Made by a program: the position numbers and the translations under genes. From the NCBI GenBank assembly GCA_030590485.1, contig JAUUYL010000003.1, positions 6,977-70,976 on the forward strand: a stretch of 64,000 bases of DNA, written 5' to 3'. Under the pieces are notes generated by a model, which saw nothing but the letters and a program-made list of their open reading frames with translations, was not told the origin of the DNA and searched no databases. Source of the stretch: Lentisphaerota bacterium. GTDB lineage: Bacteria > Verrucomicrobiota > Kiritimatiellia > UBA8416 > JAUUYL01. Every line of letters starts with the position of its first letter. Position 1 is the first letter of the stretch. Positions 207 to 17,428 of this stretch are shown here, in pieces.

Positions 207-3200
207 TCAGGATTTCTCCTGCAAGGGCGTAAAGAATGCCTCAATATCAGCAACGTCCCATTTGCTGATGACCTCTTTCTGATCGCTTAAAAGACCATTA
301 ATCAGCGCACTTTTCTTCTCCTGCAGCTCGAGAATCTTATCCTCAACAGTTCCCGCGGCAATAAGCTTGTAAACGAAAACCGGCTTATCCTGACCAATAC
401 GATGCGCACGGTCAGTAGCCTGATTCTCCACAGCAGGATTCCACCATGGATCATAATGAATCACAGTATCAGCGGCCGTCAGGTTTAGCCCTGTCCCTCC
501 GGCTTTCAGGCTGATGAGAAAAACAGGCACTTCGCCTGATTGAAATTCGCGTATCGGAGTTTTGCGGTCTTTTGTCCGACCGGTAAGCTTAACATACTTA
601 ATATTCTCCGCATCCAGAAGCTCTTCAATCAACTTGATCATGCTGACAAACTGTGAGAACAGAAGAATTCTCCGCCCTTCAGAAACCAGCTCCAGCAGTA
701 GATCGCGCAAGGCATCAAGCTTGGCCGAGTCTTTAACTTTTTCGGCCGCCTTCAGCTTGAGCAGCTTCGGGTGACAGCAGACCTGCCGCATCTTCAGCAA
801 AGCGTCCAGAACAATGATGTGCGATCGAGCCAGCCCTTTCTGTCTGATTGCATCGCGAACCGTTTTTTCCATAGATGCCCTGACGGTTTCATACAGATCT
901 TTCTGCCCGGCCGATAGTTCAATATGTTGGATCATCACGGTTTTCGGCGGCAACTCCTTAGCAACTTCATCCTTGGTGCGACGGAGCATAAACGGAGCAA
1001 TGCGCCGGGCCAGCAGGCGACGCGAATCCACATTGCCTGCCTTCTCAATTGGCACTCGGAACAGTCGCCGGAACAAAGCCTGATCACCGAGCAGACCCGG
1101 CACTACAAATGAAAAAAGCGACCACAGGTCGTCGAGATTGTTTTCCAGCGGTGTTCCGGTCAAAGCAATTCGTTGTTTCGCATGCAGCAATCTGACCGTT
1201 CGAGCCGCCTGTGTTTTATGGTTGCGCACAAACTGCGCTTCGTCCAACACCACCATATGAAACTCGTTTTTCAACAGCATCTTCCCGTCACGAACTAGAA
1301 GCGGATAGGAAGTTACAATCAAATCATATTCCGAAAATGTATCAAAAAACTCATCCCGCTCCGGGCCGTGCGATACATGAACCCGAAGTCCCGGGGCAAA
1401 TCGCCGCGTTTCGTCCTCCCAATTGTACAAAACGCTTGTCGGCGCAACAATCAGACAGGGTTTATCCAGGCGCCCTGATTCTTTTTCTATCAGAATATGC
1501 GCCAGCGCCTGAACGGTCTTTCCAAGCCCCATGTCATCTGCCAGTACCGCACCGAATCCGCTCTCCCGGAGAAACTGCATCCAGCTCACCCCTTCCTGCT
1601 GGTAGTCACGCAGCTCAGTCTTCAATCCCTTCGGAACCTCAACTGCAGGCACTTCCGGTAGCTGCATAAACCGCTGAAGCTTGCTCTTCAGCGATTCAGG
1701 CAAACGCCCCTCCCACGCTGATTCACCATCCAGGAGCCGTCCTAATTCCATGGCCCTTAACCATGGAATCTGCAAACACCCCTCTTTTTTTGCGACAACC
1801 TTTGTATCAAACAGCTCAAGAAGCATTGAGGCCAGCATTCGTAGCCGTTCCGCAGGAATCAGAAGATTACGTTCTTCCGACAATGGGAACACTATATTGC
1901 TGTCTAAAGCTTTGTTCAGTGAGCGTACGGAGGTGCGCCGAAGAAAATCCGTCAGCAACGGGATCAAGTTTATCTTCTCTCCATCAACGACAACGCCCAC
2001 TTCCGCATCAAACCAATCTACGCCAGATGCGCTCTCCTCCAGGTCAGCAAACCAGCTCTCAGGCTCTATCAGCGTCAATTCAAAAGATGGATCAAATTCG
2101 ACATCCCAGCCAAGCTCCTCCAGTCGGGGAACGGTCTGCGAGAGAAACGTCAAAAAGTCATTTTCCTCCTTCAGGGTCAGCCAGCCCCAGACCGGATCAG
2201 AAGGGTCTACCCAGTAGTAGACCCGCCCGACAACTTTGAAACCAACTCCGGCAAACGGGGCTTCCAGCCGTTCTTCCGCCTCGTAATCACGAATCACCGA
2301 GACAAGTGTATCACCATTCCACACAGAAATTAGTTCATCATGTGCAGCGGGGTCAACTGATACCGACCCATACAAATACTCAATCTTCACAGCGTGAACA
2401 GGCTGCCTGGACCCATATGCAAAATGGTTGACCTTAAGATCCTTTTCAGAGAACGTAAATAATGTCATTCGCGCTTTAGACAAAACACGCTCCTCACAAT
2501 GCGTAATATGCAAAGGCCTATGAATGCCCATATCTTTAGAAAATGTTTCATCCATTTTCTTAGAGAGCGCCTCAACATCGGAAGGATGAACCCCCGGCCC
2601 GCTTAGCCACGCATTCATCTGCGATGAAGTAAAAGATGTCTTCAGGCGCCCGAACGTCTTGGCCACCCCGTCAACATAGCACGGAATATCCATCGGAAGG
2701 AGAACCCCGTCACCACCGATTGCCAGATCCGGCTGTTGAGTTCCATCAGGCAGTACAGCCCAGGACAACTCCGCCTTTAAGGCATCACCCGGAGCCAGGA
2801 CATTCTCTTTGCCGATTTCCATCCAGCAACAGCGCCCGGTACCGACAACCCGCCCCAGCCATTCAACGGCCTTCGCTGAATTCAACGGCACAGAATGGAA
2901 TTCTGCTGACGGCAGCAACACCAACAGCTCCAGCAAGAGCTTCCTGTCAATATCCGAAACATACTCCTTTGTGACCAGCCTGGAAAAATCCTGCACGGCT
3001 TTCTGAGGTTCCCCCCACCGCCCGTCTTTCAATACTCTGGAAACAGAGAAGCCGATTGAAACAGAATGTCTCATCCTGTCCGGATTATTCCGCAAAAGAT
3101 AGACCAAAAACCTGTCGTCGCCCTTCTTTACGGGAACCGACACTTCGTTCGTAGTATCTGCCGCATATTGAATCGACGAAAGCCATGGCTGGTAGGGATC

Positions 3201-3554
3201 CGCAGGTACTATAGAAAACTCTTTTACGCGCATGATTTCTGCGAGCTTGTCCTGAGCCTCAGCTGCGAACATAGCCGCTGCTGCATGTTTGCACTGTTCA
3301 AAAACAGGGCAGTCGCAGTAACTCTCTACAGTAACCCAGCCATGCTCATTGAACGACAAACCCATATCAACTTCATATGAAGGCGCATATGATCCTGTAA
3401 CTATAGCGGAAATCGACAGATCTTCAACGCCAGGGAACAGGCGCTGGACTCCGCCAGCCCGGCAGATTTCACGCCCACGCCTCAGGGTCCTGGTATCAAA
3501 ATTATGTAGCCATTCAAGCATAGATGAAAAAAATACCTTTTGAAAACCCCGCAA
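207..3554 (-). CDS. SNF2-family DNA/RNA helicase with N-terminal SWIM zinc finger
   Basis: The 1115-aa ORF carries Snf2 ATPase motifs (GLGKT Walker A; DEAQ box in VLDEAQFVRNHKTQ; helicase C-terminal QATDRAHRIGQ). The N-terminal region has a CxC...CxH cluster (CDCPVFEQCKH) typical of SWIM. Confidence 0.85.
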   Translation of the reverse strand: MRGFQKVFFSSMLEWLHNFDTRTLRRGREICRAGGVQRLFPGVEDLSISAIVTGSYAPSYEVDMGLSFNEHGWVTVESYCDCPVFEQCKHAAAAMFAAEAQDKLAEIMRVKEFSIVPADPYQPWLSSIQYAADTTNEVSVPVKKGDDRFLVYLLRNNPDRMRHSVSIGFSVSRVLKDGRWGEPQKAVQDFSRLVTKEYVSDIDRKLLLELLVLLPSAEFHSVPLNSAKAVEWLGRVVGTGRCCWMEIGKENVLAPGDALKAELSWAVLPDGTQQPDLAIGGDGVLLPMDIPCYVDGVAKTFGRLKTSFTSSQMNAWLSGPGVHPSDVEALSKKMDETFSKDMGIHRPLHITHCEERVLSKARMTLFTFSEKDLKVNHFAYGSRQPVHAVKIEYLYGSVSVDPAAHDELISVWNGDTLVSVIRDYEAEERLEAPFAGVGFKVVGRVYYWVDPSDPVWGWLTLKEENDFLTFLSQTVPRLEELGWDVEFDPSFELTLIEPESWFADLEESASGVDWFDAEVGVVVDGEKINLIPLLTDFLRRTSVRSLNKALDSNIVFPLSEERNLLIPAERLRMLASMLLELFDTKVVAKKEGCLQIPWLRAMELGRLLDGESAWEGRLPESLKSKLQRFMQLPEVPAVEVPKGLKTELRDYQQEGVSWMQFLRESGFGAVLADDMGLGKTVQALAHILIEKESGRLDKPCLIVAPTSVLYNWEDETRRFAPGLRVHVSHGPERDEFFDTFSEYDLIVTSYPLLVRDGKMLLKNEFHMVVLDEAQFVRNHKTQAARTVRLLHAKQRIALTGTPLENNLDDLWSLFSFVVPGLLGDQALFRRLFRVPIEKAGNVDSRRLLARRIAPFMLRRTKDEVAKELPPKTVMIQHIELSAGQKDLYETVRASMEKTVRDAIRQKGLARSHIIVLDALLKMRQVCCHPKLLKLKAAEKVKDSAKLDALRDLLLELVSEGRRILLFSQFVSMIKLIEELLDAENIKYVKLTGRTKDRKTPIREFQSGEVPVFLISLKAGGTGLNLTAADTVIHYDPWWNPAVENQATDRAHRIGQDKPVFVYKLIAAGTVEDKILELQEKKSALINGLLSDQKEVISKWDVADIEAFFTPLQEKS

Positions 3555-3776
3555 GCAACGTCAATGCTGCCTTTATAAAATCAACCTGTCTACACAAGCG
3601 TAACCAGCCTCACATTCCAAGACCACATTAATCATCTGAAAGGTTACACTGGGAGTGATGATTTACAAAAATGTCCCGCAAGAGTCAAGAAGCGTATAGC
3701 AGGGAGGCCCTTCCGAAAAAGAGGAATTTGTATTGCCGGCCAAGCATTCTCCCTTCATTCCATCCGTCAGCCGCGC

Positions 3777-3843
3777 CTACGAGAGTGAACTTGCCGGCTG
3801 AATGCTCTGTTTCTTCAAGATGCAAAGAAAGTTTCTCCTGCAC
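3777..3843 (-). pseudogene. hipA/hipT-like relic (P-loop region fragment) in an intergenic spacer
   Basis: The 67-bp stretch 3777-3843 is about 87% identical (58/67) to 6380-6447 inside hipT. Its reverse-complement translation reads KKLYSFTVQEKLSLHLEETEHSAGKFTLVG, against the HipT stretch SVTIPGVQEKLSLHLEKAEHSSGKFTLVG. There is no start codon, and similarity is lost on both flanks. Confidence 0.5.
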
Positions 3844-3958
3844 AGTGAAAGAATAAAGCTTCTTGAAAAATCAGGAAAGAAAGCAGAAGCTGACAAGCTG
3901 AAGAAACAGTTCGAGGCAAACAAAAAAGCCACTATGGCGTAGAACAACAGAGGTATCA

Positions 3959-5440
3959 ATGAATATAAAGACTATATTAGTTATATACATTTCGTTATTA
4001 GTGAGTTTTGTGTCAGCAGCTGACCTTGAGCTTGCGTCACCATTTTCAGAGCACATGGTGTTGCAGAGGCAGATGCCTATTCCTGTCTGGGGCTGGGGTA
4101 AGCCGGGAAGTAAGATATCAGTCGAATTTGCGAGTAAAACAACAAAAGGCAAGGTCAGAGCAGACGGCAGATGGAAAGTTATTTTGCCAGCCGTTAATAA
4201 AGCAGGCGGCCCACATAAATTTACCGTTAAATCGGGTGATGCAGTAATTGAATATAAAGACGTTCTTGTTGGCGAGGTCTGGATATGCTCCGGCCAGTCA
4301 AATATGCAACAAGGTAGAGGAGTCCTGAAAAATGCTAAGCAAATGCTGGTCGTAGCCGCGAAGAAACCCATTAGATGTATGGAGGTGAAGCGCACGGTAA
4401 GATTTGAGCCGCAGGAACGTTGTTCGGGTAAATGGTCTAAACAAACTCCTAACAGTGCCGTTGCATTTGCGTTTGCTTATTATCTGAATAAAGATCAGGA
4501 CATACCTGTGGGAATCATTCTGACATGTTGGAGTAGCTCAAGCATAGAAGGCTGGATGCCTCTTGAGATGCAAAAACAGCTTCCACATTTCAAGACACAT
4601 ATGGATAAATTCAAGAAACAGGATACCAAGAAAGTAACAGCGCTTATAACTCAGGAAAAGAAAGGCAAAAAATGGGCGCAAAAGGATAATGTCTTTCTGC
4701 GTACTAGGCCTAATATCCTTTATAATGCTATGATGCATCCGCTTATTCCTTATGCAGCAAGAGGAATAGTCTGGTACCAGGGTGAGGCAAACTCTGAAAC
4801 CATGCAGACAACAAAACAGTATGGAACTACTTTGTCGTTATGGTGCAAAGAACTTCGCAATCGCTGGGGCAGGATCGAGCTATGTTTTATACCGGTGATG
4901 CTGCCAAGATTCGGGAAGATTCTCCCAAAGTCGCCCTCCACTGACCCAGGTAATCCTTCTGCGTATAGCTGGGCTTATTTCAGAGAAGCTCAAATGAAAA
5001 TTCTTGATCTTCCTAATACAGCAATTGCGAACACCATTGATCTTGGCGCTTTAAAGAACATTCATCCGAGAGATAAAGAGCTTATTGGTAAGCGACTTGC
5101 ATTATTAGCAGGTGGTTTAACTGGCGATGCTAAAGGTCTCGTGCAAGGACCTGTTTTTTCTGGAATGAAGAAAGAAGGCAAGAATCTGAGAATAAGCTTT
5201 AAGAATGCGGATGGATTAAAAACAATTGACGGCAAACCGCCCGCCGAGTTCTGGGTTGCCGGTAAAGACAATAAATGGGTACAGGCTACAACTAAAATAA
5301 GTAAAGACTCTGTAATACTGTCATGGGACGGTAAAGCTACGCCTGTAGCAGTACGCTATGCTTTTGCCGGATTTCCGAAAGTAAATCTTGTTAATAGTGC
5401 AGGACTACCTGCTATACCTTTCAGAACAGATACAAATTAG
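3959..5440 (+). CDS. secreted carbohydrate esterase, sialate O-acetylesterase-like (SGNH/DUF303 family)
   Basis: It has an N-terminal signal peptide and a GQSNMxxG motif (CSGQSNMQQG) with downstream conserved W/Y-rich blocks typical of sialic-acid-specific 9-O-acetylesterase domains. The gene is AT-richer than its surroundings. Confidence 0.55.
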   Translation: MNIKTILVIYISLLVSFVSAADLELASPFSEHMVLQRQMPIPVWGWGKPGSKISVEFASKTTKGKVRADGRWKVILPAVNKAGGPHKFTVKSGDAVIEYKDVLVGEVWICSGQSNMQQGRGVLKNAKQMLVVAAKKPIRCMEVKRTVRFEPQERCSGKWSKQTPNSAVAFAFAYYLNKDQDIPVGIILTCWSSSSIEGWMPLEMQKQLPHFKTHMDKFKKQDTKKVTALITQEKKGKKWAQKDNVFLRTRPNILYNAMMHPLIPYAARGIVWYQGEANSETMQTTKQYGTTLSLWCKELRNRWGRIELCFIPVMLPRFGKILPKSPSTDPGNPSAYSWAYFREAQMKILDLPNTAIANTIDLGALKNIHPRDKELIGKRLALLAGGLTGDAKGLVQGPVFSGMKKEGKNLRISFKNADGLKTIDGKPPAEFWVAGKDNKWVQATTKISKDSVILSWDGKATPVAVRYAFAGFPKVNLVNSAGLPAIPFRTDTN

Positions 5441-5672
5441 CAAGATAGGTTGTTAGGCTATTAGGATGATAGAAAAAAGGAGAGTGAGCACCGGAGGTGG
5501 GAGGTGGTTTGCATAGCTCACAGAGCGATACATGGGTCTTGCTGAGGCGTTGTAGGGGATTGCCATAATCCCGCTAATACACCTTGTTTTAGGGCATAAT
5601 CAGGCAACCAAATATTCAAATGAGCTTGCGTTTTTGATTTTTTCTTTGGCATAATATTTACCCTTGATCAGC

Positions 5673-6629
5673 TCAAAGCTCTAACCGCTCACGCCGAACA
5701 TTAATAAGGTCTTCAAACTCCTCTTTCTTCTCATCAGAGATAAAGCTTTGTTCAATAAATGACAAGACCGAAGAGATATTCGATACGACTCGTTCATATG
5801 CATTGTCTGCCTGCTTGTCATTCAACCCTATAGCCCCGGCAAAGGTGTCAAAATCACGGCGCTTCAGTTTTGCTTTCTTTCTGTTCAACGCAAGAGCGAT
5901 CTCTTCTGGATCATCAGCCTCTGAAATTAGAAGTCTGGTGGCAACAAGGTCATATGCCGGTGCCAACTGAACAAGATCCATCTTAGAATAATAGAGAGAG
6001 AAGTTCTTCAGGTGCATGTCAGCATTTCCAGTCAGGAAACAAAACAGCGTTATATCGAAGAGCTTGGTGATATCCAGCAATGGATGAGAAGAATACTCAC
6101 TGATAGCTTTCCCAATATTCTCCATGGAACTCCGGTATTTCTGCTCCGTCAACCGCTCTGTCAACTGACACATATCCTCCATGTGATGTATCTTCTTATT
6201 CTGAGTTCTGTCTATTCGCTTTGTAATATACGCCAACTCGCCAGAGTTAAGGCGTATCAGCCCATGAGCAACTGTCTTTATTCCGCATAACTCCGCAAGA
6301 TTCATAGTCAGGTCTTCAATTTCCGGCATCTCCGGATATTTCCTTACAGGAGGCTTCAGTATATAATCCCCCCATAAACCTACGAGAGTGAACTTGCCAG
6401 AAGAATGCTCTGCTTTCTCAAGATGTAAGGACAGTTTCTCCTGCACACCCGGAATGGTTACGCTACTCTTAACAATATTCTCAGCCAACGCCTCCAGCTC
6501 GTCCAATGCGTAAGGCATCTCGGGCGGAGTTGTCTTGCCGAAAAGAGACTTACTACAGGCCGGATGATACTCATTCTCTGAATCATCCAACGGCTGATAA
6601 CAACGCAAACATTTCCCTGTTATACTCAT
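5673..6629 (-). CDS. hipT: HipT-like Ser/Thr kinase toxin (HipA core kinase domain without the N-subdomain)
   Basis: It carries a Gly-rich loop VTIPGVQEKLSL (HipA ISVAGAQEKTAL), a catalytic motif GNADMHLKNFS (HipA GATDGHAKNFS) and a downstream AP-YDLVAT motif. Its stop/start overlaps the upstream hipS-like gene by 4 nt (ATGA). Confidence 0.85.
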   Translation of the reverse strand: MSITGKCLRCYQPLDDSENEYHPACSKSLFGKTTPPEMPYALDELEALAENIVKSSVTIPGVQEKLSLHLEKAEHSSGKFTLVGLWGDYILKPPVRKYPEMPEIEDLTMNLAELCGIKTVAHGLIRLNSGELAYITKRIDRTQNKKIHHMEDMCQLTERLTEQKYRSSMENIGKAISEYSSHPLLDITKLFDITLFCFLTGNADMHLKNFSLYYSKMDLVQLAPAYDLVATRLLISEADDPEEIALALNRKKAKLKRRDFDTFAGAIGLNDKQADNAYERVVSNISSVLSFIEQSFISDEKKEEFEDLINVRRERLEL

Positions 6630-6967
6630 TCGGCGTTATCTCCATCAATGGGCAGCGCGCCCACCATCCCAATGCAATCCTTGCAACAGGCAAGCAGAAG
6701 CCCCATCCTGTCATGAACATCTATCTTCCATGATCTATGAGCAATATCCAGGAGCCAGCCTTCCGGAATCAAACCATCAAAAAATGGAAACATGTATTTC
6801 TCATAAAACGGTTCTGACTGAAGCGGAAGCGTAAGACTGACACCCATGGATTCAGGATTCTCAATATACGCATTCTCATATGTAAAGGTATACCCATCGT
6901 CAGTCTCAGTCAGAATCCCTGCAATGACGTCATTATACAGTATGCTTGCTTTTCTATTCATGTTCAC
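6626..6967 (-). CDS. hipS: HipS-like protein (stand-alone HipA N-terminal subdomain)
   Basis: The 113-aa ORF resembles the HipA N-subdomain (the CKDCIGMVGALP block parallels HipA RDSVGAV). It is translationally coupled to hipT. Confidence 0.8.
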   Translation of the reverse strand: MNMNRKASILYNDVIAGILTETDDGYTFTYENAYIENPESMGVSLTLPLQSEPFYEKYMFPFFDGLIPEGWLLDIAHRSWKIDVHDRMGLLLACCKDCIGMVGALPIDGDNAE

Positions 6968-7172
6968 TTCTTCTCTGCTTCGGAGTCGGACTCATCTCAT
7001 GCCCGAACAAAGCAAGAACCTGATTAACCTTTTCCATATCCAAGCTCTTTTTCCCCTGCTCCATATCACGAATAAAGCGCAAACCAACACCAGCCCTATC
7101 CGCAAGATCCCTCTGCGTCATTTTCAACAGCTTACGCTTCTCCTTAAGAAACTTTGACAAAGTATTTTTCAT
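6954..7172 (-). CDS. hipB: HipB-like XRE-family HTH transcriptional regulator
   Basis: The roughly 72-aa ORF has the helix-turn-helix LKMTQRDLADRAGVGLRFIRDME. It overlaps the hipS start by 14 nt. The track ORF begins at GTG 7178, and an in-frame ATG lies at 7172. Confidence 0.75.
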   Translation of the reverse strand: MKNTLSKFLKEKRKLLKMTQRDLADRAGVGLRFIRDMEQGKKSLDMEKVNQVLALFGHEMSPTPKQRRSEHE

Positions 7173-7185
7173 AACCACAATACAA

Positions 7186-7284
7186 TATACCCGCTCGGGT
7201 ATATTGTCAATATATTTTTAGCCATTTATACCCGTACAGGTATATATTTTACTCAAAGCTGTTGAATATACCCGTTCGGGTATA
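7186..7284. promoter_or_regulatory. array of three 18-bp palindromes TATACCCG-NN-CGGGTATA (candidate HipB operators)
   Basis: The palindromes are at 7186-7203 (perfect 8-bp arms), 7227-7244 (one arm mismatch) and 7267-7284 (perfect arms). Centre-to-centre spacing is 41 and 40 bp. The array starts 14 nt upstream of the hipB ATG. E. coli HipB operators are TATCC-N8-GGATA palindromes. Confidence 0.6.
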
Positions 7285-7528
7285 TTCGGCTCGCAATTAC
7301 ACGATTTGTAGCAAACCCGTAACAAAATTCATGATTGCTGAAAAGTATATATCGCCATTACTCAACATTCATAAGCTATATCTGAGTTTCCAATCGTATA
7401 ACTATGGCGGTCTTGCGCACTGCCACAATTGCTCCAACACCCCTTATTTCACTGTATAATTTGTTACCTGCTCTTTCAAAAAAGCTTGCTGTTACAGTGC
7501 TAATACCCCATATTCATGCCCTCTTCAC

Positions 7529-7616
7529 GGAGGGGTGCCAGAGTGGCCGAATGGGGCGGTCTCGAAAACCGTTGATCCTTACGGATCCGTGGGTTCGAAT
7601 CCCACCTCCTCCGCCA
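7529..7616 (+). tRNA. tRNA-Ser (anticodon CGA), CCA encoded
   Basis: The 88-nt cloverleaf has acceptor GGAGGGG/CTCCTCC, an anticodon stem GCGGT/ACCGT with loop CTCGAAA, a long variable arm TGATCCTTACGGATCCG, a T-arm GTGGGTTCGAATCCCAC and a 3' GCCA end. Confidence 0.9.
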
Positions 7617-15640: not shown

Positions 15641-17428
15641 CTACTCCAAGACAGCTTTTATCCGTCTGACTCCCGCACTTGATGACTCTTCCTTCTTTAT
15701 CCGGAAATGACCCAGCTCGCCTGTTCTGTCAGCATGCGGGCCGCCACAAACTTCCATAGAAAAGTCGCCTATCGAATATACCTTTACCTGCTCTTCGTAT
15801 TTCCCTGCGAACAGCGCCATAGCGCCACGGCTCTTCGCCTCTTCCAGCGTCATCACCTCCATGGCAACAGGAAGATCTTTCTGAATGACATCATTGACCA
15901 TATCTTCAACCTGTTTGCGCTCTTCCTCAGTCATCCTGGCATGATGCGAAAAGTCGAATCTGAGCCTTGATGCAGTGATGTTTGATCCCTTTTGCTGAAC
16001 ATGCTCACCCAGAATATTCCGGAGGCTTTTGTGCATGATATGTGTAGCCGTATGCAATCGTTTCGTTGCATCTGAATCATCGGCCAGCCCGCCCTTAAAA
16101 GCTTTATCGGCTCCCTGCTTAGAGACTTCGCGATGTTTCTTGAATGCTTTCTCGAAGCCTGCCTTGTCAACAGTCAAGCCCTGTTCAGCGCATATCTCCT
16201 CCGTAAACTCCAAAGGAAACCCGCAGGTATCATAGAGTCTGAAGGCCACACGTCCGGAAACCATCGTCTGGCCATGCTTCTTAAGATTGTCCACCACCTT
16301 TTCGAGTTCAGCTGTTCCCTTGTTAAGGGTCTTTTCGAATTTCTCCTCTTCCCGAACGAGCTCAGCAAGAATCTTCTCCCTGTTGTCCTGCAATTCGGAA
16401 TAAACATGGCTGTAATTATCGATTACACATTCAGCAATAGGCTTTGAAAATCCTATGTCCAGATTCAGTTTCTTAGCGTAACGTACTGACAGTCTGATCA
16501 GACGCCTGAGAACATATCCTTGCCCCAGATTTCCGGGCACAATACCTTGCGAATCACCAATAATAAAGACTGAACTGCGAATATGGTCCGCTATAACTCT
16601 GAAAGCATGACCAACTTCTTCATTATCATCAATTTTCTTCCCAGACATCTTTTCGATTATGGCAATAATTGGCGTAAACAGTTCCGTTTCAAAAACCGTA
16701 CTCTTTCCCTGAAGCATAGCTATCGTTCGCTCGACACCCATGCCCGTATCAACATTATGCTGCGCGAGTTTAACGTACTCGCCAGCCTTGGTCTTCTCGT
16801 ACTGTATGAAGACATCGTTCCATATCTCGAAATACTTGCCGCAAGAACAGCCGGGTCTACAGTCTTCGCCACACAGGTCCTTACCCGTATCAATGAACAT
16901 TTCCGTGTCAGGCCCGCAGGGTCCAGTCTCGCCAGCCGGCCCCCACCAGTTGTCCTTCATGGGAAGCGCATATATCCTTTCCTCGGGAATTCCCAGTTTC
17001 TTCCATATTGCAATTGATTCATCATCACGCGGAACAGATTCGTTACCCTCAAAAACTGTGACGGACAGTTTTGACTCGTCAAAGCCGAGATATTCACTGG
17101 ACGTAAGGAACTCATGTGACCAAGCTATTGCCTCCTCCTTGAAGTAATCACCAAGCGACCAGTTGCCCAGCATCTCGAAAAACGTCAAATGGGTGCTGTC
17201 GCCCACTTCGTCAATATCTCCGGTACGGATACATTTCTGGCAATTGCAGAGACGTTTCCCTGACGGATGTTCCTCGCCAAGGAGGTACGGCACAAGCGGA
17301 TGCATTCCCGCCGTCGTAAACAATACTGTTGGATCGTTCTGAGGAATCACTGAACTGCCGGATATCCGGACATGGTTCTTTGACTCAAAGAACTTTAAAT
17401 ACATTTCCCTGAGTTCGTCTGCTCTCAC
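15641..17428 (-). CDS. alaS: alanine--tRNA ligase, short form lacking the C-Ala domain
   Basis: The class II AlaS N-terminus reads FTTAGMHPLVPYLLGEEHPSGKRLCNCQKCIRT. Editing-domain motifs are HTATHIMH and CGGPH. It has only 595 aa, against about 875 aa for canonical AlaS. Confidence 0.85.
   Translation of the reverse strand: MRADELREMYLKFFESKNHVRISGSSVIPQNDPTVLFTTAGMHPLVPYLLGEEHPSGKRLCNCQKCIRTGDIDEVGDSTHLTFFEMLGNWSLGDYFKEEAIAWSHEFLTSSEYLGFDESKLSVTVFEGNESVPRDDESIAIWKKLGIPEERIYALPMKDNWWGPAGETGPCGPDTEMFIDTGKDLCGEDCRPGCSCGKYFEIWNDVFIQYEKTKAGEYVKLAQHNVDTGMGVERTIAMLQGKSTVFETELFTPIIAIIEKMSGKKIDDNEEVGHAFRVIADHIRSSVFIIGDSQGIVPGNLGQGYVLRRLIRLSVRYAKKLNLDIGFSKPIAECVIDNYSHVYSELQDNREKILAELVREEEKFEKTLNKGTAELEKVVDNLKKHGQTMVSGRVAFRLYDTCGFPLEFTEEICAEQGLTVDKAGFEKAFKKHREVSKQGADKAFKGGLADDSDATKRLHTATHIMHKSLRNILGEHVQQKGSNITASRLRFDFSHHARMTEEERKQVEDMVNDVIQKDLPVAMEVMTLEEAKSRGAMALFAGKYEEQVKVYSIGDFSMEVCGGPHADRTGELGHFRIKKEESSSAGVRRIKAVLE

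Follow-up and report, generated by a model that had tools for sequence, protein, structure and literature searches.

The window analysed here, a stretch of 64,000 nucleotides, carries at 5673-7284 three ORFs in the order hipB-hipS-hipT, all on the minus strand, for which ORF calling returned the same coordinates as the earlier note. hipB (6954-7178) encodes a 74-aa protein from a GTG start, with an Xre/Cro-type HTH and a putative role as autorepressor; hipS (6626-6967) encodes a 113-aa homologue of HipA N-subdomain 1, also from a GTG and a putative antitoxin; and hipT (5673-6629) encodes 318 aa with a Ser/Thr kinase core of HipA-like type, a putative toxin. The hipB stop and hipS start overlap by 14 nt, or by 8 nt if hipS begins at ATG 6961, and the hipS stop and hipT start share 4 nt as ATGA. 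The upper bound of the locus, 7284, takes in three operator-like palindromes at 7187-7283. The original description of a tripartite HipBST system with a split HipA was borne out, the HipA_C, Couple_hipA and HTH_3/couple_hipB domains being distributed one per ORF; the Pfam matches of hipT to HipA_C (9e-45) and of hipS to Couple_hipA (7.6e-24) place neither protein in an unrelated family. The locus combines the gene order and overlaps of the HipBST family with a HipT core kinase that lacks N-subdomain 1, a HipS of about 100 aa and a small HTH protein, HipB, whose gene stands first, whereas the single HipA of about 440 aa with N-subdomain 1 that marks canonical HipBA is replaced by kinase and N-subdomain in separate ORFs. 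A profile HMM scan of all six frames of the window found one further hipB, hipS or hipT remnant only, a hipT relic of 69 nt (about 25 codons) at about 3775-3844, and Rfam gave nothing in the locus, its only matches being the two tRNAs of the window.

The HipA_C domain of HipT spans residues 58-287, and the protein has no Couple_hipA domain. Its kinase motifs are not degenerate: the Gly-rich loop VTIPGVQEK occupies residues 57-65 (T58-I59-P60-G61), the GNADMHLKNFS motif occupies residues 201-211 with the catalytic D204-M-H206-L-K208-N209, the Mg-binding Asp is D227, and an RxDR motif is present as R138-I-D140-R141. The residues essential in the Legionella pneumophila protein, HipT(Lp), are K61, K85, H199, N202 and D219 (PMC9325769), and these align, together with the catalytic Asp, to K65, K92, H206, N209, D227 and D204 of the window HipT. 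All six are invariant or nearly so among 114 HipT homologues, in which G61, Q63 and K208 are conserved too. The best PDB sequence matches are to HipT(Lp) (2e-47), the E. coli protein HipT(Ec) (2e-15) and HipA (2e-5), with 34-39% identity to the Lp protein and 22% to the Ec protein. Superposition of an AF2 model (pLDDT 87, pTM 0.88) in Foldseek gave a TM of 0.88 with HipT(Lp) (7wcf/7vkc), 0.83 with HipT(Ec) and 0.65-0.71 with HipA. Within the loop, position 58 is Thr in 89 and Ala in 18 of the 114 homologues and position 60 is Pro in 111, and T58-I59-P60-G61 follows the pattern of the T[IV][TP] loop group, namely Thr, a small aliphatic residue and Thr or Pro before the loop Gly (Baerentsen et al. 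2023, PMC10627512). Thr58 stands where the studied proteins have a phosphorylated Ser, and it is likely the autophosphorylation site. Because Thr replaces Ser here and the position is Ala in some homologues, the module may nevertheless not need autophosphorylation, which has been reported to be dispensable in HipT(Lp).

HipT begins with a conserved mini-domain (residues 1-56) containing C7, C10, H22 and C25 in the arrangement C-x2-C...H-x2-C. These four residues are invariant in all 114 close homologues and are found in 110 of 118 representatives; when lost, they are usually lost all together. Most single-chain HipS-HipT fusions keep them, and both solved HipTs (Lp and Ec) lack them, the Ec mini-domain retaining one Cys only. 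Pfam gave no match on residues 1-56 even at an E-value of 10, and we found no mention of these residues in the literature searched. One tentative reading, to which we give somewhat less than even weight, is that the mini-domain is a C2HC zinc knuckle (treble-clef-like) across most of the family and that the two studied HipTs are degenerate exceptions that lost it. The invariance of the motif suggests a structural feature lacking in both solved HipTs, and if the zinc-knuckle reading is true, kinase control or target recognition in the common FCB/PVC-type HipBST systems, the present one among them, could involve an element dependent on metal or redox state that is missing from current models.

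HipS, which probably starts at ATG 6961 (111 aa) to match its homologues, gave NCBIfam TIGR03071 couple_hipA at 8.6e-29 in addition to the Pfam domain. Its PDB matches are HipS(Lp) (1.7e-14), HipS(Ec) (4.9e-11), HI_0666 (1.3e-10) and HipA residues 10-107 (1e-3), and the suggestion that it corresponds to the HipA N-subdomain is thereby upheld by HipA itself and by the solved HipS proteins. The fold of HipS is assigned by sequence homology, its AF2 model from the single sequence being too poor for use (pLDDT 40). The protein carries the segment FFDGLIPEGW, including E69 and W71, which align to E63 and W65 of E. coli HipS (PMC10627512 for the E. coli residues), and W71 is present in all 79 complete HipS proteins of related loci. 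In the E. coli system, Trp65 of HipS wedges into the kinase (PMC10627512). A near-identical metagenomic contig has a frameshifted hipS adjoining an intact hipT; should this frameshift prove genuine, cells may be able to tolerate HipT in the absence of HipS.

HipB probably starts at ATG 7172 (72 aa) and matches Pfam HTH_3 (7e-10) and NCBIfam TIGR03070 couple_hipB (75.4 bits against a cut-off of 71.65); its sole HipBST match in the PDB is HipB(Lp) (8ezt, 6.8e-4). Upstream of hipB lie the operator-like palindromes O1 (7187-7202, ATACCCGCTCGGGTAT), O2 (7228-7243, ATACCCGTACAGGTAT, with one mismatch and 41 bp from O1) and O3 (7268-7283, ATACCCGTTCGGGTAT, 40 bp from O2). A consensus scan identified a sigma-70-like promoter candidate reading into hipB at 7182-7210 on the minus strand (TTGACA-17-TATTGT, 10 of 12 matches), whose -10 hexamer stops roughly 10 nt short of ATG 7172 and whose -35 and -10 hexamers enclose O1. 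The motif ATACCC-N4-GGGTAT has three sites in the 64 kb, all at this promoter region, with 0.03 expected by chance, and it recurs with roughly 40-bp spacing upstream of hipB in 76 of 78 related loci. These three conserved palindromes overlap the promoter-like site and are candidate operators for autoregulation by HipB, and the motif with its spacing, conserved across phyla, makes a convenient starting point for studying how HipB binds.

The match scores place the locus closer to the Legionella-type systems than to the E. coli one for HipT (2e-47 versus 2e-15) and HipS (1.7e-14 versus 4.9e-11), and HipB matches the Lp protein only; judged by its sequences, the locus is a member of the HipBST(Lp)-type subclade of Lin et al. 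2023. HipBST was called widespread already in 2019 (PMC6581861), and the Legionella-type subclade is widely distributed in distant groups outside Proteobacteria, especially the FCB superphylum (Lin et al. 2023, PMC10653801). Our database search turned up relatives in no fewer than 577 species genomes (about 8000 proteins), Verrucomicrobiota MAGs among them, and the order hipB-hipS-hipT is kept in 79 of 81 related loci from many phyla. The earlier statement that the architecture is known from a few enterobacterial systems is therefore out of date, and the cassette, although correctly called, is unsurprising because its type has already been described from hundreds of bacterial species. Similarly, the host, which belongs to the PVC group and is Kiritimatiellia-like by ValS, does stand at a great distance from Enterobacteria, but such a distant host is not notable for the Legionella-type subclade, given the Verrucomicrobiota MAGs among the relatives. 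Together, we conclude with high confidence that the chromosome carries here an intact type II toxin-antitoxin module, which belongs to the HipBST family, Legionella-type subclade and T[IV][TP] loop group. It is one more uncharacterised member of a widespread family, from a phylum (Kiritimatiellota/PVC) in which that family had not previously been given particular notice.

Two other accounts of how the locus arose deserve consideration. HipS and HipT jointly cover the HipA architecture, and the clade does include single-chain HipS-HipT proteins (15 among the best 150 representatives), as expected if this were a hipBA pseudogene whose hipA had been broken into two ORFs by a frameshift, a nonsense mutation or an assembly error rather than a designed split; one such fusion, P0275 (450 aa), matches HipS at 2e-35 and HipT at 2e-85. 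The fusions are co-linear with the window proteins (50% identity to HipS and 42% to HipT for P0275) but join the parts through an extra linker of 25-40 residues, which is absent here. Moreover, nearly all related loci keep the split, across phyla and with a clean overlap of stop and start, HipT opens with a conserved mini-domain of its own, and the nearest solved proteins are split HipT and HipS rather than HipA, so that a broken hipA is extremely improbable and is effectively refuted; the fusions indicate instead that the split or fused state has changed within the clade. Having noted an AT-richer segment beside tRNA-Ser, the first reading of the sequence suggested horizontal acquisition, for instance as a cassette recently brought in on an island integrated at that tRNA. 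The GC content of the locus is modestly low, 43.7% where the window as a whole has 47.3% (5th percentile of equal-sized stretches), and no other 4-kb stretch in the window is as poor in GC as the block 3555-7528 (43.3% versus 47.1 +/- 1.3%); the hipT relic hints at past rearrangement; the nearest HipT relatives have unrelated surroundings, with other TA pairs next to them; named relatives at 57% identity belong to other phyla; and homologues are found on Bacteroidota plasmids. However, the GC3 of hipT (0.49) and hipB (0.51) equals the window mean (0.50 +/- 0.04), and the only GC3 outlier is the neighbouring SASA esterase (0.39). Genomic islands normally integrate at the 3' end of a tRNA, whereas the locus lies 5' of tRNA-Ser(CGA) (7529-7616, plus strand) and is transcribed divergently from it. 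No integrase or recombinase ORF was found in 3555-7528, no second copy of the tRNA 3' end (an att-like repeat) in the 64 kb and no match to HipT in the phage collection. With an integrase, a tRNA 3'-end repeat and a placement 3' of the tRNA all absent, the case for a horizontal island is weak, and a recent arrival on an island at tRNA-Ser appears quite unlikely.

For the intact HipBST module, the mechanism would follow the systems of E. coli O127 and L. pneumophila, from whose homology we infer that HipT is toxic and autophosphorylated, that HipS acts as the antitoxin, that the operon is repressed and what class of target is involved; for toxicity, neutralisation and repression, the identity that underlies this transfer is that given above for HipT. 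One promoter would drive hipB-hipS-hipT, with the overlapping stop and start codons coupling translation. Free HipT, as a HipA-type Ser/Thr kinase, would phosphorylate an essential cellular protein and cause growth arrest, its toxicity presumably being kinase-dependent as in the two homologous systems (PMC6581861, PMC9325769, PMC10653801). HipS, the detached N-subdomain 1, would bind HipT beside the Gly-rich loop and keep the kinase off, probably with Trp71 inserted as is E. coli Trp65; by analogy with the two tested homologues, HipS rather than HipB would be the antitoxin. HipB would dimerise, bridge HipS-HipT units and repress the operon through the three promoter-overlapping palindromes. 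Whether HipT works exactly as in E. coli O127, phosphorylating TrpS, blocking translation and triggering the stringent response, is a separate matter. No HipT substrate other than TrpS has been proven, three gammaproteobacterial HipTs could be rescued with TrpS of E. coli (PMC6581861, as cited by PMC10653801), and the window HipS retains the E. coli-type Trp. The window HipT is, however, much closer to HipT(Lp) (2e-47, TM 0.88) than to HipT(Ec) (2e-15, 22% identity), HipT(Lp) toxicity was not rescued by TrpS or GltX, neither of which appeared in phosphoproteomics (PMC10653801), and the two solved HipTs are not alike in their target-binding loops (PMC10627512), so we regard TrpS phosphorylation as unlikely in this case. 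Because HipT(Lp), the nearest characterised relative, does not act through TrpS or GltX, TrpS is not to be assumed as the target, and the E. coli label 'TrpS kinase' should not be carried over when the large Legionella-type subclade is annotated. A role in anti-phage abortive infection, rather than in persistence or stabilisation, would be compatible with the main mechanism. It draws on weak matches of HipT to the PADLOC candidate defence family PDC-M03A (8e-10), on AbiEi/AbiEii and PIN/Phd modules adjoining close relatives and on the general implication of TA modules in phage defence (PMC8262856). Since the PADLOC matches are partial (HipT residues 105-230), PDC-M03A is a candidate family only, the flanking genes in the window are housekeeping or glycan-related rather than a defence island, and we found no experiment tying HipBST to phage defence in the literature searched, this role is doubtful. 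A SNF2 helicase match to DpdE was set aside as a mark of a defence island; no other dpd gene is in view, and the DpdE models are generic SNF2 models.

Among systems already characterised, the Legionella pneumophila HipBST (Lpg2368-Lpg2369-Lpg2370; PDB 7vkb, 7vkc, 7wcf and 8ezr-8ezt) has the same three genes, order and overlapping frames, the same essential HipT residues, one phosphorylatable position in the Gly-rich loop and a HipB of about 72 aa. It differs in its loop (S-V-Q instead of T-I-P), in the HipT mini-domain, which is devoid of C7, C10, H22 and C25, and in its host, which belongs to the Legionellales rather than the PVC group. HipS(Lp) has Ile65/Met66 where the window HipS has Trp71, and the Trp wedge has been demonstrated in E. 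coli HipS only. HipT(Lp) has reportedly been described as a Dot/Icm effector as well. The HipBST system of enteropathogenic E. coli O127:H6 (PDB 7ab3-7ab5) follows the same tripartite logic, with HipS as HipA N-subdomain 1 (PMC10627512), and its Glu-x-Trp (E63/W65) is kept as E69/W71 in the window. Its HipT likewise has an extra N-terminal mini-domain and superposes on the window HipT at TM 0.83, but has only 22% identity (2e-15), a dual phosphoserine loop (S-I-S) and TrpS as target, and an N-terminal extension makes its HipB longer. HipBA of E. coli K-12 and Shewanella oneidensis shares the kinase fold and catalytic motifs (TM 0.65-0.71), the HTH partner and multiple upstream palindromic operators; in contrast, its HipA is one 440-aa chain that matches HipT only at 2e-5, and the antitoxin is HipB. 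For HipBA the operator is TATCC-N8-GGATA, from which the window motif, ATACCC-N4-GGGTAT, differs.

The minus strand of the window carries three consecutive ORFs at 5673-7178, and their order and families bear out the tripartite hipB-hipS-hipT locus described in the earlier note. ORF calling placed hipB, the HTH gene for the putative repressor, at 6954-7178 (74 aa from a GTG; 72 aa from an ATG at 7172, the form that matches a protein already on record), hipS, for the putative antitoxin, at 6626-6967 (a 113-aa ORF) and hipT, for the putative kinase toxin, at 5673-6629 (318 aa). The ATG at 6961, giving 111 aa, is the more likely start of hipS because homologues begin with MNRKA or MSRKA. An ATGA is common to the hipS stop and the hipT start, and the hipB stop TAG falls within the first codons of hipS; these two overlaps are the sequence basis for the predicted translational coupling. 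In Pfam and NCBIfam, HipB was assigned to HTH_3/couple_hipB, HipS to Couple_hipA and HipT to HipA_C, the latter two domains thus lying in separate proteins; all three proteins exceed the curated cut-offs, and the tripartite locus is therefore real, far beyond chance.

The kinase motifs are also intact, and neither the unrelated families nor the degenerate motifs that would have told against the earlier note were found. In a comparison with the whole PDB, the best match of HipT was the Legionella pneumophila protein, HipT(Lp) (7vkb/7vkc/7wcf/8ezr; E ~2e-47), followed by E. coli O127 HipT, HipT(Ec) (7ab3-5; ~2e-15), and HipA (2e-5). An AlphaFold model built on an alignment of 114 homologues (pLDDT 87, pTM 0.88), with uncertainty confined to the Gly-rich loop (residues 55-63), was superposed by Foldseek on HipT(Lp) with a TM of 0.88, on HipT(Ec) with 0.83 and on HipA with 0.65-0.71. 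Zhen et al. found K61, K85, H199, N202 and D219 to be required for HipT(Lp) toxicity (PMC9325769); in the HMMER alignment these correspond to K65, K92, H206, N209 and D227 of the window HipT, and the catalytic D197 to D204, all six being invariant or nearly so among the 114 homologues. The RxDR motif, which holds the phospho-residue (PMC10627512), is kept as R138-I-D140-R141. The autophosphorylated serine of the known kinases (S54 in HipT(Lp), S57 in HipT(Ec), S150 in HipA) is replaced by Thr58; together with the adjoining Ile and Pro, this residue assigns the window HipT to the T[IV][TP] group that Baerentsen et al. had described (PMC10627512).

The partner proteins have relatives in the same systems. 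HipS matched HipS(Lp) (1.7e-14), HipS(Ec) (4.9e-11), Haemophilus HI_0666 (1.3e-10) and residues 10-107 of HipA (1e-3) in the PDB, and HipB matched HipB(Lp) (6.8e-4). HipS E69 and W71 align to E63 and W65 of E. coli HipS, whose W65 wedges into the kinase (PMC10627512), and W71 is present in 79/79 complete HipS sequences of related loci. A 2.2-kb metagenomic contig (L081; Logan SRR18920793) is 99.86% identical to window 5084-7254, with an identical (100%) hipT and all three differences within 30 bp, in the region of contig positions 421-490 (window 6834-6764); one of them, a 1-nt deletion at window position 6785, frameshifts hipS ahead of its conserved motif FFDGLIPEGW and may reflect faulty assembly or a naturally antitoxin-null variant.

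Upstream of hipB, the palindrome ATACCC-N4-GGGTAT occurs at 7187-7202, 7228-7243 and 7268-7283, spaced by 41 and 40 bp; allowing one mismatch, these are the only three matches in the 64 kb, against 0.03 expected. The first lies between the hexamers of a promoter-like TTGACA-17-TATTGT oriented into hipB, whose -10 hexamer ends ~10 nt upstream of the ATG of hipB; the hipB mRNA leader may therefore be very short or absent. Of 78 related loci, drawn from many phyla, 76 also have this palindrome upstream of hipB; the copy number ranges from one to four and the spacing is mostly ~40-41 bp. Putative operators arranged in this way are the pattern expected under HipB autoregulation.

At its N-terminus, HipT carries C7, C10, H22 and C25 (C-x2-C-x11-H-x2-C; window 6555-6611), which are invariant in 114/114 homologues and present in 110 of the 118 cluster representatives with a complete N-terminus; the other eight usually keep the first cysteine alone, which is also the case in HipT(Ec) and HipT(Lp). 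In the model (pLDDT 75-94), C7 and C10 flank a hairpin beta-bridged between residues 6 and 13, while H22 and C25 open helix 23-30, a topology resembling that of a treble-clef zinc knuckle. The HipBST papers searched say nothing of cysteines or zinc in this mini-domain. A fused form also exists: 15 of the top 150 representatives consist of one chain of ~440-455 aa that joins a HipS-like domain, the C2HC mini-domain and the HipT kinase, and examples such as P0267, P0275, P0276, P0286, P0321 and P0324 have a 25-40-residue linker and 37-46% identity to the window HipT; the clade has therefore switched between split and fused states. In a further protein, P0386 (1387 aa), a HipT-like N-terminus leads into a long extension with a P-loop (GEPGAGKST).

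A split kinase could in principle be a broken hipA pseudogene, but this reading is excluded because the HipS/HipT split is conserved across relatives, the two genes meet in a clean ATGA and HipT possesses its own N-terminal mini-domain. The case for the proposed horizontal acquisition of the locus beside tRNA-Ser is weak. The segment is indeed AT-richer, with a locus GC of 43.7% vs 47.3% for the window (5th percentile) and the lowest-GC 4-kb stretch at 3555-7528; however, GC3 of hipT (0.49) and hipB (0.51) matches the mean of the window (0.50 +/- 0.04), and the low GC of the 3.5-7.5 kb block is driven by a SASA-family carbohydrate esterase gene (3959-5440, plus strand; signal-peptide-like N-terminus), whose GC3 of 0.39 is the lowest in the window. 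Moreover, the cassette lies 5' of tRNA-Ser in divergent transcription, no integrase was found in 3555-7528 and no second copy of the tRNA-Ser 3' end in the 64-kb window, so a recent tRNA-targeted island is not supported. Movement over evolutionary time, which is usual for TA modules, is likely, since the closest HipT relatives (70-75% identity; L082 8427-10116 and L083 9217-9830) have unrelated surroundings, with further TA or abortive-infection pairs (AbiEi/AbiEii; PIN/PhdYeFM) at distances from a few hundred bases to ~3 kb, and the best named relatives belong to other phyla.

The sole other hip-like remnant in the window is an intergenic 69-nt stretch at 3776-3844, between the SNF2 helicase and SASA esterase genes, with sharp borders and 87% identity to hipT 6379-6447 (codons 62-84, just past the Gly-rich loop); it is a relic of another copy. 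The helicase (207-3554, minus strand; 1115 aa, SWIM/SNF2-type), whose gene abuts the window start, gave very strong PADLOC matches to DpdE (2e-215) and ZorD, which probably reflect similarity among SNF2 proteins in general, as the window shows no further dpd or zor genes. The window is chromosomal and carries AlaS, BamA, ValS, RecN, ParC, PrsA and IspE, with ValS sharing 64-71% identity with proteins from Kiritimatiellae, Lentisphaerae and Verrucomicrobia MAGs. The host accordingly belongs to the PVC group, probably to Kiritimatiellia. The alanine-tRNA ligase of the window (15641-17428, minus strand), a full-length match to NF002436, is short at 595 aa beside the ~870 aa usual for bacterial AlaS.

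The view that this architecture is known from a few enterobacterial systems has to be abandoned. When the HipBST family was first described in 2019 it was already called widespread, at that time mostly gammaproteobacterial (PMC6581861), and with one genome scanned per species we confirmed relatives in at least 577 species genomes. The best 80 of these are mostly Bacteroidota and also include Cloacimonadota, KSB1, Marinimicrobia, Armatimonadota, Ignavibacteria, Chlorobium, Verrucomicrobiota, Desulfocapsaceae and Caenarcaniphilales. The gene order is hipB-hipS-hipT in 79/81 loci, the other two being interrupted by contig ends. A word-indexed search returned at least 7987 proteins with E <= 1e-10 among 8000 scored, and an exhaustive search of 1.84 billion cluster representatives returned 1743 clusters with E <= 1e-10, of which 329 reach E <= 1e-30. 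Relatives occur on 12 plasmids, mostly of Bacteroidota and one of Legionella, and no HipT relative was found in the phage collection.

HipT would cause kinase-mediated growth arrest, HipS would neutralise HipT and HipB would autoregulate the module. TrpS is an unlikely substrate of the window HipT: the toxicity of HipT(Lp), the defining member of the same subclade, was rescued by neither TrpS nor GltX, neither was found phosphorylated, and PheS and RpoC are unconfirmed candidates (PMC10653801). Given these results, our commitment stops at kinase-mediated arrest countered by HipS, with autoregulation by HipB, and no substrate is named. Phage defence, considered as an alternative role of the module, has a low probability. 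In the Hip kinase tree, HipBST makes up clade III (PMC8262856), and the Legionella system defines a second HipBST subclade with a broad distribution in remote groups, above all the FCB superphylum (Lin et al. 2023, PMC10653801); the window locus belongs to this subclade as judged by sequence, making it a further member of a family already described. The earlier call is thus correct, the locus being intact and its family known and common; anything new would have to come from the substrate of the Legionella-type subclade or from the unreported C2HC mini-domain of HipT, whose full motif is present in the window protein, in contrast to both structurally solved HipTs.
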